A stretch of DNA of 64,000 bases. Source: Escherichia coli. Lineage in GTDB: Bacteria; Pseudomonadota; Gammaproteobacteria; Enterobacterales; Enterobacteriaceae. The stretch lies in assembly GCF_003334255.1 (NCBI RefSeq), contig NZ_QOWU01000006.1; one strand, given 5' to 3'. Positions within the stretch are counted from its first letter, which is position 1. Every line of letters starts with the position of its first letter. Under the pieces are notes generated by a model. That model did not search any database and was not told where the DNA came from. It saw nothing but the letters and a program-made list of their open reading frames with translations. A program made the translations under genes and the position numbers. Shown piece by piece: positions 1,750-5,611 of the stretch.

Positions 1750-1926
1750 TTACGTTTGAATATTGCTTGAAAGGGTAATCACCTCACAGGAAATTATTGC
1801 CCTAAGCAAGTGTTGTAACTTTCTGCTGATTTTGTAGAATCGGGTAATTTGGTTAAAAAGCCGCAGCAAGGGACTATTTTTGCAGCGGCACAGCGTTCAG
1901 ATAGTTATTTTGTTAAATGTATTAAC

Positions 1927-4275
1927 ATGCTGAGTTTATACGAAAAGATAAAGATAAGGCTGATAATTTTATTTTTATTGGCAGCACTGTCATTTATTGG
2001 TCTTTTTTTCATCATTAACTATCAACTGGTATCGGAACGCGCGGTAAAACGTGCCGATAGCCGCTTTGAACTTATTCAGAAAAACGTTGGCTATTTCTTT
2101 AAAGATATTGAACGTTCGGCCCTGACATTAAAGGACTCACTGTATTTATTAAAAAATACAGAGGAGATTCAACGCGCCGTGATTCTGAAAATGGAAATGA
2201 TGCCATTTTTAGACTCGGTGGGACTGGTACTTGATGATAATAAATATTATCTCTTTTCACGGAGGGCGAATGATAAAATCGTTGTTTATCATCAGGAACA
2301 AGTAAATGGACCGCTTGTCGACGAGTCAGGGCGGGTTATTTTTGCCGATTTTAACCCATCGAAACGACCGTGGTCGGTGGCTTCAGATGACTCTAACAAC
2401 AGCTGGAATCCGGCATACAATTGCTTTGATCGTCCGGGTAAAAAATGTATCTCTTTTACGCTACGTATCAACGGCAAAGATCACGATTTGTTAGCGGTAG
2501 ATAAAATTCATGTCGATTTAAACTGGCGGTATCTGAACGAGTATCTTGATCAAATCAGCGCTAATGATGAAGTTCTATTTTTGAAACAAGGTCATGAGAT
2601 CATTGCCAAGAATCAACGCGCTCGTGAAAAACTGATTATTTATAATAGCGAAGGTAATTATAATATTATTGATTCTGTCGATACGGAGTATATTGCAAAG
2701 ACATCAGCAGTGCCAAATAATGCATTGTTCGAAATCTATTTTTATTATCCTGGCGGTAATTTATTGAACGCATCAGATAAACTTTTTTATCTACCGTTTG
2801 CGTTCATTATTATCGTGTTGCTGGTGGTATATTTCATGACCACTCGTGTGTTCCGTCGGCAATTTTCTGAAATGACCGAGCTGGTTAATACGCTGGCGTT
2901 TTTGCCCGACTCAACGGATCAGATCGAGGCTCTGAAAATTCGCGAAGGCGATGCGAAAGAGATTATCAGCATCAAAAATTCGATCGCGGAAATGAAAGAT
3001 GCCGAAATTGAACGGTCAAATAAATTGCTCTCACTGATCTCTTACGATCAGGAAAGCGGTTTTATTAAAAATATGGCGATTATTGAGTCCAACAATAATC
3101 AGTATCTGGCTGTGGGGATCATCAAACTGTGTGGTCTGGAAGCCGTGGAAGCGGTGTTTGGTGTTGATGAACGCAATAAAATCGTCAGGAAATTGTGTCA
3201 GCGAATTGCCGAGAAATATGCGCAATGCTGCGATATCGTGACATTCAATGCCGATCTCTATTTACTTCTGTGTCGGGAAAATGTACAGACATTTACCCGT
3301 AAAATAGCGATGGTAAACGATTTTGACAGCAGCTTTGGCTACCGCAATCTGCGCATCCATAAGTCTGCCATTTGTGAACCTTTGCAGGGGGAAAACGCCT
3401 GGAGTTACGCAGAAAAACTGAAACTGGCGATTTCCAGTATCCGTGACCATATGTTCTCCGAGTTTATTTTCTGTGATGACGCGAAACTCAACGAAATAGA
3501 AGAGAATATCTGGATTGCGCGTAATATTCGCCATGCAATGGAAATTGGCGAACTATTCCTCGTCTATCAACCGATCGTTGATATTAACACCCGCGCCATT
3601 CTGGGCGCGGAGGCGTTGTGCCGTTGGGTTTCTGCGGAGCGGGGGATCATTTCACCGCTGAAGTTCATTACCATTGCTGAAGATATCGGGTTTATCAATG
3701 AGCTGGGTTATCAGATTATTAAAACGGCAATGGGTGAATTCAGACATTTTAGTCAGCGTGCGTCGCTGAAGGATGATTTCTTACTGCATATTAATGTTTC
3801 GCCCTGGCAGTTAAACGAACCGCACTTTCATGAGCGTTTTACCACCATCATGAAAGAAAATGGCCTGAAGGCGAACAGCCTCTGTGTTGAGATCACTGAA
3901 ACCGTGATAGAGCGAATTAATGAACATTTTTATCTCAATATTGAACAACTGCGTAAACAAGGGGTACGGATATCGATTGATGACTTTGGCACCGGTTTGT
4001 CAAACCTGAAACGTTTTTATGAAATTAATCCAGACAGCATAAAGGTGGACTCGCAATTTACCGGCGATATTTTCGGTACTGCGGGAAAAATTGTGCGCAT
4101 TATTTTCGATCTGGCACGCTATAACCGGATCCCGGTGATTGCGGAAGGCGTAGAGAGCGAAGACGTTGCGCGCGAATTAATTAAATTAGGATGTGTTCAG
4201 GCTCAGGGGTATCTGTACCAGAAACCCATGCCATTCTCCGCCTGGGATAAAAGTGGAAAATTAGTTAAAGAGTAG
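1927..4275 (+). CDS. pdeI: c-di-GMP phosphodiesterase PdeI (YliE), membrane-anchored EAL-domain protein
   Basis: ORF 1849..4275; internal ATG at 1927 ([10 protein letters not shown]) chosen giving 782 aa; N-terminal TM segment; EAL-type C-terminus; AT-rich. Confidence 0.8.
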
Positions 4276-4282
4276 TTTACGT

Positions 4283-5611
4283 ATGTCCAGAATCAATAAG
4301 TTCGTACTTACAGTCAGTCTGCTGATTTTTATCATGATTTCAGCAGTTGCCTGCGGGATCTACACTCAAATGGTAAAGGAACGGGTGTATAGCCTGAAAC
4401 AGTCCGTTATTGATACTGCTTTTGCGGTGGCAAATATTGCTGAATATCGGCGTAGCGTGGCAATTGATCTTATCAACACGCTAAATCCCACGGAGGAACA
4501 GCTGTTGGTTGGTTTGCGCACAGCTTACGCCGACTCGGTTTCCCCCTCTTATTTGTACGATGTCGGTCCTTATCTGATTTCCAGTGACGAATGTATTCAG
4601 GTAAAGGAGTTCGAGAAAAATTATTGTGCAGATATTATGCAGGTTGTGAAGTATCGACATGTCAAAAATACAGGGTTTATCTCTTTTGACGGTAAAACCT
4701 TCGTCTATTACCTCTATCCGGTAACTCACAATCGTAGTCTGATATTTTTGCTTGGTCTGGAGCGTTTTTCTTTACTGTCAAAATCGCTGGTGATGGACAG
4801 CGAGAACCTGATGTTCTCTCTATTTAAGAACGGTAAACCGGTGACCGGTGATGAATATTATGCTAAAAACGCCATCTTCACCGTTTCGGAAGCGATGGAG
4901 CACTTCGCCTATTTGCCGACCGGATTGTACGTATTTGCGTATAAAAAAGATGTTTATTTGCGGGTCTGTACATTGATTATTTTCTTTGCCGCATTGGTGG
5001 CAGTGATATCGGGTACCAGTTGCCTCTATCTGGTACGCAGAGTGATTAATCGTGGTATTGTGGAGAAAGAAGCCATCATTAATAACCATTTTGAACGCGT
5101 ACTGGATGGCGGGCTTTTCTTTTCGGCTGCCGATGTCAAAAAACTCTACAGTATGTATAACTCGGCGTTCCTGGACGACCTGACCAAAGCAATGGGCAGA
5201 AAATCCTTTGACGAAGATTTAAAAGCGCTGCCGGAAAAAGGCGGTTATTTGTGCCTGTTTGACGTCGATAAATTCAAAAACATTAACGACACCTTCGGTC
5301 ATTTGCTGGGCGATGAAGTGTTGATGAAAGTGGTGAAAATCCTTAAATCACAGATCCCGGTAGATAAAGGTAAAATCTACCGCTTCGGCGGTGACGAATT
5401 TGCGGTGATTTATACGGGTGGAACGCTGGAAGAGTTGCTATCGATTCTAAAAGAAATCGTTCATTTCCAGGTGGGAAGCATTAATTTAAGTACCAGTATC
5501 GGTGTAGCGCATTCAAATGAATGTACCACCGTCGAACGCTTGAAAATGCTGGCGGATGAGCGGCTGTATAAGAGTAAGAAAAACGGCAGGGCTCAGATTA
5601 GCTGGCAGTAA
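4283..5611 (+). CDS. dgcI: Diguanylate cyclase DgcI (YliF), GGDEF-domain membrane protein
   Basis: 442 aa ORF, 8 nt after pdeI stop; N-terminal TM, GGDEF motif (RFGGDEF) near C-terminus. Confidence 0.85.

Follow-up and report, generated by a model that had tools for sequence, protein, structure and literature searches.

Escherichia coli has 12 c-di-GMP cyclases and 13 phosphodiesterases, for most of which the input signal is unknown. A co-transcribed cyclase and phosphodiesterase, each with its own sensor, is known from the DosC-DosP (DgcO-PdeO) operon, where the sensors are cytoplasmic haem-based O2 sensors and the cyclase comes first. The CSS-domain phosphodiesterases (PdeC and relatives) are membrane EAL enzymes with a conserved cysteine pair and periplasmic disulfide control. 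The PdeI-DgcI pair described here is, like DosC-DosP, a cyclase/phosphodiesterase pair, but it is membrane-bound, has periplasmic dCache-type sensors and has the phosphodiesterase first. PdeI has the membrane EAL architecture and a conserved periplasmic cysteine pair in common with the CSS-domain enzymes by analogy only; Pfam found no CSS-motif domain in PdeI, for which the predicted fold is dCache.

Homologues of the two proteins, under the names YliE and YliF, adjoin plasmid bcs clusters, which DosC homologues also accompany (Römling laboratory, bioRxiv 10.1101/2025.05.09.653004). The plasmid and island copies beside accessory bcs2-4 have the same CHASE9-EAL then GAPES2-GGDEF architecture, order and tight spacing as the chromosomal pair, and the same catalytic motifs and periplasmic cysteines. 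They differ in sequence (31–41% identity), in GC content (28–35%) and in being flanked by IS elements and bcsAB, and they are often truncated or frameshifted, whereas chromosomal pdeI-dgcI belongs to the species core and has no bcs genes beside it. The genes, the domain names and the plasmid homologues were already known; what the present analysis adds, modestly, is a clean insertion site and a gradient of amelioration.

The window analysed was the whole stretch of 64,000 nucleotides, in which the AT-rich block is the known E. coli pdeI-dgcI operon. RefSeq annotation agreed with the gene names given in the preliminary description of this DNA. The E. coli K-12 locus encoding PdeI (YliE, b0833) and DgcI (YliF, b0834) has the identical position, neighbours and domain architecture, with 98.9% identity over 7.2 kb and no substantive difference, and commensal strain G1/2 matched window positions 1–7200 at 100% identity. 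The annotated start of pdeI is the ATG at 1927, the TTG at 1849 being only a mechanical open reading frame start. The start of dgcI lies 7 nt past the pdeI stop codon and is preceded by AAAGAG. The features of the locus are as follows.

838..1749, + strand: gsiD, glutathione ABC permease gene, left conserved flank, 53.0% GC (RefSeq)
1750..1926, + strand: upstream intergenic region, 177 bp, counted as part of the insert
1927..4275, + strand: pdeI (yliE), 782 aa, 41.8% GC
4283..5611, + strand: dgcI (yliF), 442 aa, 43.5% GC
5622..5651, no strand assigned: GC-rich hairpin inside the 46-bp convergent dgcI/rimO intergenic region
5658..6983, - strand: rimO, right conserved flank, 52.7% GC (RefSeq)

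The two genes had been singled out as visibly richer in AT than gsiD and rimO, and this was borne out by their having the lowest GC of the 56 annotated genes (pdeI, z = -3.6, rank 1/56; dgcI, z = -3.0, rank 2/56, lowest first), where the other 54 have 52.0 ± 2.9%. Sliding-window GC was 0.36–0.45 over approximately 1750–5750 and 0.50–0.59 on either side. The segment 1849–5611 has 42.3% GC compared to 51.1% for the whole window, and was the lowest of all 3.76-kb segments of the 64 kb (mean 0.511, SD 0.023). The long AT-rich runs quoted at the outset are present at 1966–1987 and 2149–2166.

The deficit was found mainly at codon positions 1 (GC1 of 0.49 in pdeI and 0.48 in dgcI; 0.60 in other genes) and 2 (GC2 of 0.31 and 0.32; 0.40 in other genes), while GC3 was only moderately low at 0.45 and 0.51 (other genes, 0.57 ± 0.05). 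The residues F, Y, M, I, N and K together make up 35% of PdeI and 33% of DgcI compared to 23.8 ± 3.3% elsewhere. The AT-richness of the pair is thus mostly an amino-acid effect at codon positions 1 and 2. Many AAA, AAT and ATT codons had also been noted, and codon usage was to be compared with that of the flanking genes along with GC; only GC lay outside the range of the flanks. AAT, ATA and TTA codons are specifically raised in pdeI, but synonymous codon choice relative to neighbouring genes was ordinary (pdeI, z = -0.3; dgcI, z = -0.8), and we rejected it as a signal of horizontal transfer.

The junction between gsiD and rimO was then compared in an outgroup sample of about a dozen species. 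In Salmonella, Citrobacter, four Enterobacter species, Cedecea, Mangrovibacter and a soil MAG the two genes lie tail to tail, 38–107 bp apart, and the pair was missing from an otherwise intact junction in Salmonella, Citrobacter, Enterobacter, Cedecea, Mangrovibacter and Klebsiella. Among the junctions sampled it was occupied by pdeI-dgcI only in E. coli, E. albertii and E. fergusonii; the pair is therefore not universal among related genera. Both flanks are well conserved, gsiD, which adjoins rimO in the other genera, being 86–97% identical there, and rimO 90–100% identical across Enterobacteriaceae. Homology to the Salmonella and Citrobacter junctions stopped at the gsiD and rimO stop codons. 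Within E. coli the pair was kept in 5381 of 5426 complete genomes.

No integrase, IS, att site, direct repeat or tRNA was found at the borders (1750–1926 and 5612–5657), and an Rfam scan of positions 1–8000 gave no matches and no tRNA features. Integration scars were sought by BLAST and folding of the borders against Salmonella, Citrobacter, E. albertii and E. fergusonii, and none were seen. Of the features of an islet, pdeI-dgcI therefore shows atypical composition, an interrupted junction and mobile relatives, and no mobility signatures at its borders.

The lack of flanking mobility genes or repeats, together with a GC deficit that falls mostly on the first two codon positions with normal synonymous choice, would fit vertical inheritance, in which the pair was present in the ancestor of Enterobacteriaceae and lost outside Escherichia, the low GC simply reflecting the amino acids of membrane sensors. 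For this, at least nine of the sampled lineages would each have had to delete the pair precisely and independently, down to the short gsiD–rimO distances given above. No homologue or remnant outside Escherichia appeared in exhaustive searches, and GC3 of the pair is still below that of the host and grades towards the 0.25–0.31 of the mobile copies. We consider vertical inheritance with loss very unlikely. The junction data instead support entry of the pair into the chromosome as one block at this site, in what would be the stem lineage of Escherichia.

Database searches were directed at relatives and a possible donor. In a set of 5.8 billion proteins, every match to the sensor halves was from Escherichia or Shigella. 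PdeI residues 1–400 were also run exhaustively with phmmer against 1.84 billion representatives, where each of the 40 matches was a mobile paralogue or an Escherichia-type fragment. No donor lineage outside Escherichia was found in either of these protein searches. The most divergent matches (P0064, P0071, P0067 and P0086) all derive from plasmids or islands of E. coli or E. albertii, as copies or as fragments of such copies, and P0068 and P0077 appear to be A-to-G converted artefacts. Because no outside donor was found, the case for a foreign origin is built from site, distribution and composition.

Besides the chromosomal copy, four more lineages of the EAL→GGDEF pair were found on Escherichia plasmids and a tRNA-Phe island. 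The carriers were IncHI1B, IncFIB and RepB plasmids and, for the island, an element encoding a TraI_2 relaxase and an integrase; these copies often lie beside accessory bcsAB cellulose synthase genes. With one exception, the plasmid copies were in Escherichia hosts (67 and 98 records). In every full-length lineage the EAL→GGDEF order was constant and the genes overlapped or were separated by a gap of at most 32 bp, and across lineages the pairwise identities of PdeI and DgcI correlated with r = 0.994. The mobile lineages are equally distant from one another and from the chromosomal clade (31–41% identity). Mobile copies have 28–35% GC and GC3 of 0.25–0.31, chromosomal copies 39–43.5% GC and GC3 of 0.37–0.51, and the host GC3 level is 0.57. 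The gap to the host has narrowed chiefly at codon position 3 and to a smaller extent at position 1, with almost no change at position 2.

Every lineage found is thus in Escherichia, which is what would be expected if the chromosomal operon were itself the source, with plasmids and islands having captured copies that diverged rapidly and nothing having come from outside. A source within the genus has been raised in the Römling laboratory preprint, which suggests that mobilization promotes diversification (bioRxiv 10.1101/2025.05.09.653004). The divergence of the mobile lineages is, however, much deeper than that between the E. coli and E. fergusonii pairs (70–78% identity), and their GC3 lies further from the Escherichia equilibrium than that of the chromosomal copies, where descent from the chromosome predicts the opposite. 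It also leaves the empty junction in sister genera unexplained, so that an insertion event would still be needed. An origin within the genus appears unlikely to us. The preliminary proposal that the pair was acquired horizontally as a unit instead gained support from the empty outgroup junctions, the Escherichia-only sensors, the mobile two-gene copies and their co-divergence, and we regard the acquired cassette, with one phosphodiesterase and one cyclase, as the probable reading.

The borders were also scanned for regulatory signals. A candidate sigma-70 promoter was identified upstream of pdeI (-35 TTGTAA, 1813–1818; -10 TAGAAT, 1835–1840). A 16-bp block at 1826–1841 is conserved in three Escherichia species, and within the upstream region 1750..1926 only CTGATTTTGTAGAATC was also present in E. 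fergusonii. For dgcI, the sigma-54 promoter proposed in a genomic SELEX paper was not supported, with only weak sites at 3987–4002 and 1869–1884 and 34 sigma-54 motifs in the window where 44 ± 6 were expected, which is not above chance. An excess of intragenic promoter-like sequences, as expected of H-NS-silenced DNA, was not significant (13 compared to 9.9 ± 3.0 in shuffles), and our literature search found no paper on H-NS binding at pdeI-dgcI. At the other end of the operon the RNA of 5612–5687 folded with -20.3 kcal/mol, and the hairpin at 5622..5651 is probably a shared bidirectional terminator of dgcI and rimO, as judged from this predicted fold. The hairpin in this intergenic region differs in every species compared; orthology of the E. 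coli hairpin to that of Citrobacter was unsupported by border comparison.

The domain organization of the two proteins, both encoded on the + strand, is given below.

PdeI aa 12-30: first transmembrane helix (TM1)
PdeI aa 31-285 (nt 2017-2781): periplasmic CHASE9/dCache sensor carrying C166 and C174
PdeI aa 286-304: second transmembrane helix (TM2)
PdeI aa ~305-531: linker and degenerate GGDEF-like domain
PdeI aa 532-767 (nt 3520-4227): EAL domain
DgcI aa 8-26: first transmembrane helix (TM1)
DgcI aa 27-223 (nt 4361-4951): periplasmic GAPES2/dCache-like sensor carrying C104 and C115
DgcI aa ~224-242: second transmembrane helix (TM2)
DgcI aa 295-437 (nt 5165-5593): GGDEF domain with intact GGDEF motif

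That both are membrane proteins with large periplasmic domains, as first described, agrees with the two transmembrane helices predicted in each and with CHASE9 (PF17153, E = 2.3e-62, model 1–116 of 116) and GAPES2 (PF17156, E = 1.9e-141, model 1–204 of 204) lying between the helices of PdeI and DgcI, respectively. Structure prediction gave a double-Cache fold for both sensors (double PAS-like with a long N-terminal helix), and each has one conserved cysteine pair (C166/C174 and C104/C115). The dCache domains of the chemoreceptors and sensor kinases McpU, PctA, CqsR, KinD and DctB were only 3–16% identical to both sensors, and neither a Pfam dCache match nor a recognizable ligand-binding motif was found in the PdeI or DgcI sensor. 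Given this low identity and the lack of a Pfam dCache match, we refer to the sensors as dCache-like folds and not as family members. A common origin of the two sensors was also considered and rejected, their homology being undetectable (hhalign probability 0.2%).

Both enzymatic domains appear intact. Pfam matched PF00563 (EAL) over its full model length in PdeI (E = 2e-69, residues 532–767) and PF00990 (GGDEF) in DgcI (E = 1.1e-24, residues 295–437). The EALxR, QPI, NVSP, EITE, DDFG and EGVE motifs were invariant in seven PdeI sequences from five lineages, as were the RFGGDEF and DxDxFKxxND motifs of DgcI across lineages, and both genes are under purifying selection (dN/dS 0.057 for pdeI and 0.052 for dgcI). 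Judged by these motifs, the earlier claim of one maker and one breaker of c-di-GMP would be correct. The RxxD I-site, which is common among GGDEF cyclases without being defining, is absent from DgcI, where DKGKIYRF precedes the GGDEF motif. A study of strain CFT073 likewise lists YliF without an I-site and credits YliE with the full EAL set EALR/QRDD/TE/ENEEDKEQ; in that work the ΔyliF phenotype was complemented by a foreign cyclase (PMC3484386).

A different role for PdeI was put forward in eLife in 2024, where its overexpression raised c-di-GMP approximately 11-fold, PdeI level tracked a c-di-GMP reporter and the G412S substitution abolished the rise (PMC11651652). These data conflict with a simple phosphodiesterase role and, if PdeI is a c-di-GMP synthase, the operon would encode two makers. 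At the position of the GGDEF motif, however, the PdeI lineages read FNADLY, LSSDLY, LSPYKY, ISDKRF and INKNKY, a degenerate site that is not conserved, and they lack the metal-binding DxD, while all catalytic motifs of the EAL domain are invariant. Overexpressed pdeI also blocks the c-di-GMP-dependent phage N4, as do six bona fide phosphodiesterases (PMC7553319), and Reinders 2016, in the account given in PMC11651652, has G412S lowering c-di-GMP. The observations would be compatible if PdeI acted indirectly, by way of its partner DgcI for instance. That PdeI is itself a synthase is in our view quite unlikely.

Taken with the proposed acquisition, we infer from sequence and comparison the activities in vivo, the co-transcription, the disulfides, the ligand gating and the cellulose link that make up the following working model. 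The AT-rich block (~1750–5611) would be a two-gene c-di-GMP signalling cassette that entered the chromosome once and was then retained as a core operon, with partial amelioration towards host composition. A promoter in the 177 bp upstream of pdeI would drive transcription of both genes together, and dgcI is probably translationally coupled, since its start lies so close to the pdeI stop. Both products would reside in the inner membrane with a periplasmic double-Cache sensor, the cysteine pair of which probably forms a disulfide. In PdeI the sensor would act through TM2, the linker and a degenerate, regulatory GGDEF-like domain on an active EAL phosphodiesterase; in DgcI an unrelated sensor would control an active GGDEF cyclase, one lacking product feedback inhibition because there is no I-site. 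Together they would constitute a self-contained, signal-gated source and sink, with periplasmic cues setting the local c-di-GMP level. We give the detailed gating mechanism about an even chance of being right.

The pair is not known to have a target on the chromosome, and the core bcs operon lies away from pdeI-dgcI. The PilZ domain of BcsA mediates its activation by c-di-GMP, and since the mobile cassette is usually found beside bcsA-bcsB, the ancestral job of the pair was probably gating of an exopolysaccharide synthase. A more far-reaching version can be proposed, in which CHASE9-EAL/GAPES2-GGDEF is an orphan mobile c-di-GMP set-point cassette (at least five lineages, 31–41% identity, 28–35% GC) confined to the Escherichia mobilome and derived from an unsampled low-GC reservoir. 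PdeI and DgcI would be physically coupled, PdeI raising c-di-GMP through DgcI, and in the chromosomal operon one such copy, formerly in control of an accessory cellulose synthase, would have become domesticated. We offer this as a speculative and rather improbable extension; if the coupling were true, it would explain the paradox of a "phosphodiesterase" whose overexpression raises c-di-GMP.

The general understanding of such systems is unchanged, since the genes, domains and plasmid homologues had been described before. As a single acquired and co-evolving cassette, PdeI and DgcI are better studied jointly than as two unconnected parts of the c-di-GMP network, and this gives a concrete route to settling the published contradiction as to whether PdeI makes or breaks c-di-GMP. 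The dCache folds and conserved cysteine pairs narrow the signal candidates to small periplasmic ligands or redox state, and the tie to mobile cellulose-synthase clusters suggests the likely output.

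The window is E. coli chromosome. Over positions 1-7200 its best match, strain G1/2, is 100% identical and K-12 is 98.9% identical, and all 5,426 complete genomes of the species gave a match. Gene names and coordinates were taken from the RefSeq annotation, in which the order is gsiC, gsiD, pdeI (yliE), dgcI (yliF), rimO, bssR.

838-1749, plus strand, gsiD
1813-1840, upstream of pdeI, candidate promoter TTGTAA-16-TAGAAT (promoter scan)
1927-4275, plus strand, pdeI (782 aa, start ATG at 1927)
4283-5611, plus strand, dgcI
5622-5651, between convergent dgcI and rimO, GC-rich hairpin (RNA fold)
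5658-6983, minus strand, rimO

The preliminary description had begun pdeI at 1849, which is the first TTG of a mechanical ORF and not the annotated start. Seven nucleotides separate the pdeI stop codon from the dgcI start, with AAAGAG upstream of dgcI, and the candidate promoter overlaps a 16-bp block, the sole block of the upstream spacer common to E. coli, E. albertii and E. fergusonii. A genomic SELEX paper places an RpoN site between yliE and yliF; weak sigma-54-like -24/-12 sites were seen upstream of pdeI (1869-1884) and in its 3' part (3987-4002), and the frequency of such motifs in the window was no higher than chance expectation. The IS1 found in deoR of G1/2 is absent from the window (about 10900-11700), shifting downstream coordinates by 777 bp. 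The biofilm regulator gene bssR (7196-7579), beside rimO, is fast-evolving and mildly AT-rich (48.4% GC), with amino acid identity of 40-74% across Enterobacteriaceae genera and 78% to E. fergusonii, as against 90-100% for rimO.

A sliding-window check bore out that the pair is AT-richer than its flanks, with GC of 0.36-0.45 at about 1750-5750 and 0.50-0.59 on either side, and both AT-rich strings quoted earlier were located (1966-1987, 2149-2166). Segment 1849-5611 (GC 0.421) is the lowest 3.76-kb stretch of the 64 kb (mean 0.511, sd 0.023), and among the 56 annotated genes pdeI (41.8%, z = -3.6) and dgcI (43.5%, z = -3.0) rank lowest and second lowest, other window genes having 52.0±2.9% GC. 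The next lowest (44.8-46.1%), artJ (28792-29523), grxA (19444-19701), clpS (51861-52181) and ybjI (14264-15079), are all short and none lies in a multi-gene block like pdeI-dgcI. The deficit in pdeI/dgcI was found chiefly at codon positions 1 (0.49/0.48 versus 0.60) and 2 (0.31/0.32 versus 0.40), and F, Y, M, I, N and K make up 35%/33% of residues versus 24%, while GC3 was only moderately low (0.45/0.51 versus 0.57±0.05). The atypical composition proposed earlier thus holds for GC but not for synonymous codon choice, which was ordinary relative to the neighbours (z = -0.3, -0.8).

The gsiD/rimO junction was surveyed in one genome per species, using RimO as anchor and mapping E. coli neighbours onto the returned loci. 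The two genes lie tail to tail with 38-107 bp between them in Citrobacter werkmanii, Enterobacter asburiae, three more Enterobacter species, Cedecea, Mangrovibacter and a soil MAG; the gap is 90 bp in Salmonella enterica and 801 bp in Klebsiella (locus L093, 7327-8127; 64.8% GC, no called gene). The pair occupies this junction in E. coli, E. albertii and E. fergusonii. Acquisition of the two genes horizontally as a unit is supported by this pattern, the junction lacking the pair in the other genera surveyed and being filled in three Escherichia species. Homology to outgroups stops at the gsiD and rimO stop codons, and neither border of the pair shows an integrase, IS element, tRNA or repeat. 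Since other cargo was found in Superficieibacter (L005, 11448-14286; four unrelated ORFs) and Enterobacter sp. Ag1 (L011, 11427-12185; an OmpV/MipA-like outer-membrane protein gene), the junction is a recurrent insertion point. In E. albertii (L004, 2016-2729) an additional HEAT-repeat (PRK09687-like) gene of 237 aa lies between dgcI and rimO; it is missing in E. coli and 47% identical to a Superficieibacter gene at the same junction (L005, 12652-13341).

Within E. coli, 1750-5657 is kept at >=80% in 5381 of 5426 genomes. IS1 and other insertions split pdeI in strain JS316 and dgcI in strain B7A (window 1927-5611; among E. coli matches H4, H8, H9, H12/H114 and H86), strain HCP30S3_I2 lost the pair via an IS1-associated deletion, and many truncated DgcI forms occur in protein databases. 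The type-strain draft of E. albertii (L004, ~6313-6399) apparently has a frameshift in pdeI around codons 27-29, after which a 743-aa ORF begins anew at a GTG; PdeI is intact at 782 aa in other records of the species (P0002).

Among 5.8 billion proteins the PdeI sensor half matched only Escherichia (E. albertii 88%, E. fergusonii 68%, a partial E. marmotae protein), and matches to the DgcI sensor half and GAPES2 family profile were limited to Escherichia and Shigella. When PdeI 1-400 was run exhaustively with phmmer on 1.84 billion representatives, the 40 hits were E. coli-type fragments and a few relatives at 23-32% identity. Two database proteins, P0068 and P0077, resemble PdeI as encoded by DNA in which A was systematically changed to G (K/N/E/I/Y to R/G/S/V/C) and are probably artefacts of assemblies from chemically converted reads. 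Each full-length PdeI relative is directly followed by a GAPES2-GGDEF gene in a mobile context, as listed here.

L084, 45-8218: second pdeI/dgcI-like pair of some E. coli, on an island at tRNA-Phe, beside speC (35-38% identity, 33-35% GC), with UvrD-like helicase, TraI_2 relaxase and integrase
Contigs carrying bcsA-bcsB together with IS200 and IS3 transposases: PdeI-like relatives
IncHI1B/IncFIB plasmids: copies in the order EAL, GGDEF, IS1, bcsA, bcsB
RepB-type plasmid lineage (L094, 6001-8304): PdeI-like gene split into three ORFs

Decay is frequent in mobile copies: the GGDEF gene of pPSS-13_1 is frameshifted (L090, 8914-10187), and a DgcI-like gene next to bcsA has its N-terminus cut off by IS1 (L091, 6980-8206). 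PLSDB contained 67 plasmids with divergent PdeI-like copies and 98 with DgcI-like copies, all Escherichia bar one Salmonella record. Plasmid YliE/YliF homologues and the apparent restriction to Escherichia were already reported (bioRxiv 10.1101/2025.05.09.653004).

The CHASE9-EAL/GAPES2-GGDEF family is deeply diverse, yet confined to one genus and very low in GC throughout; no donor was visible in the searches run. Mobile copies have 28-35% GC and GC3 of 0.25-0.31, even adjoining plasmid backbone genes of ~52% GC, while chromosomal copies reach 39-43.5% and 0.37-0.51 (host GC3 ~0.57). The gap to the host has narrowed furthest at codon position 3, in part at position 1, and scarcely at all at position 2. 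For genes acquired long ago from a low-GC donor, the Lawrence-Ochman amelioration model expects the order 3 > 1 > 2, and the observed order is consistent with such an origin.

Pairwise identities of PdeI-like and DgcI-like proteins correlate (r = 0.994, 15 pairs), although much of this is the contrast of close with distant pairs. Relative to E. albertii, dN/dS was 0.057 for pdeI and 0.052 for dgcI, indicating purifying selection, and dN (0.063 and 0.033) exceeded that of gsiD (0.014) and rimO (0.001), indicating that the pair is fast-evolving.

Pfam assigned CHASE9 (residues 35-150, E = 2e-62) and EAL (532-767, E = 2e-69) to PdeI, and GAPES2 (26-229, E = 2e-141) and GGDEF (295-437) to DgcI. 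Hydropathy gave two TM helices each (PdeI 12-30 and 286-304; DgcI 8-26 and ~224-242), in agreement with the proposal of membrane proteins with large periplasmic domains. One maker and one breaker of c-di-GMP had likewise been proposed, and the EAL motifs of PdeI (EALxR, QPI, NVSP, EITE, DDFG, EGVE) and GGDEF motifs of DgcI (GGDEF, DxDxFKxxND) are intact and unchanged in all lineages compared; no RxxD I-site was found in the DgcI GGDEF domain. YliE has been described with a complete EAL catalytic residue set, and the ΔyliF phenotype is rescued by a foreign cyclase (PMC3484386). Overexpression of pdeI, as of six other PDEs, blocks the c-di-GMP-dependent phage N4 (PMC7553319). Induction of both genes has been reported at 37 °C (PMC12890032) and by BolA (PMC5605933).

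One paper, however, reported a ~11-fold rise of c-di-GMP on PdeI overexpression and termed PdeI a synthase (eLife 2024, PMC11651652). PdeI residues 377-774 align to GGDEF-EAL proteins (NCBIfam), which agrees with the degenerate GGDEF-like domain already described (bioRxiv 10.1101/2025.05.09.653004; PMC11651652), and the GGDEF-motif position in this middle domain differs in each lineage. Judged from these residues, a direct synthase role is unlikely because the GGDEF-like site is degenerate and unconserved whereas the EAL site is invariant; the rise may be an indirect effect via the co-evolving partner DgcI.

AlphaFold2 gave confident models of the periplasmic regions of PdeI (pLDDT 85.5, pTM 0.77) and DgcI (pLDDT 82.2, pTM 0.75), which resemble the dCache domains of McpU, PctA, CqsR, KinD and DctB. 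Identity to these was 3-16% and neither protein had a Pfam dCache match, indicating resemblance of fold and not membership of the dCache family; no relatedness was detectable between the two sensors. Each region has exactly two cysteines, kept in all lineages (PdeI C166/C174, inside W-x5-C-x7-C; DgcI C104/C115), which may form disulfides with a possible redox role, and the DgcI N-x2-EYR motif is invariant.

The genes, domain families and plasmid homologues were already known; new here are the clean insertion site, co-divergence, amelioration gradient, fold assignment and conserved cysteine pairs. The description that fits the locus best is a two-gene c-di-GMP cassette that Escherichia acquired long ago, that has partly ameliorated and that is now core; it encodes a predicted dCache-gated phosphodiesterase and a predicted dCache-gated cyclase.
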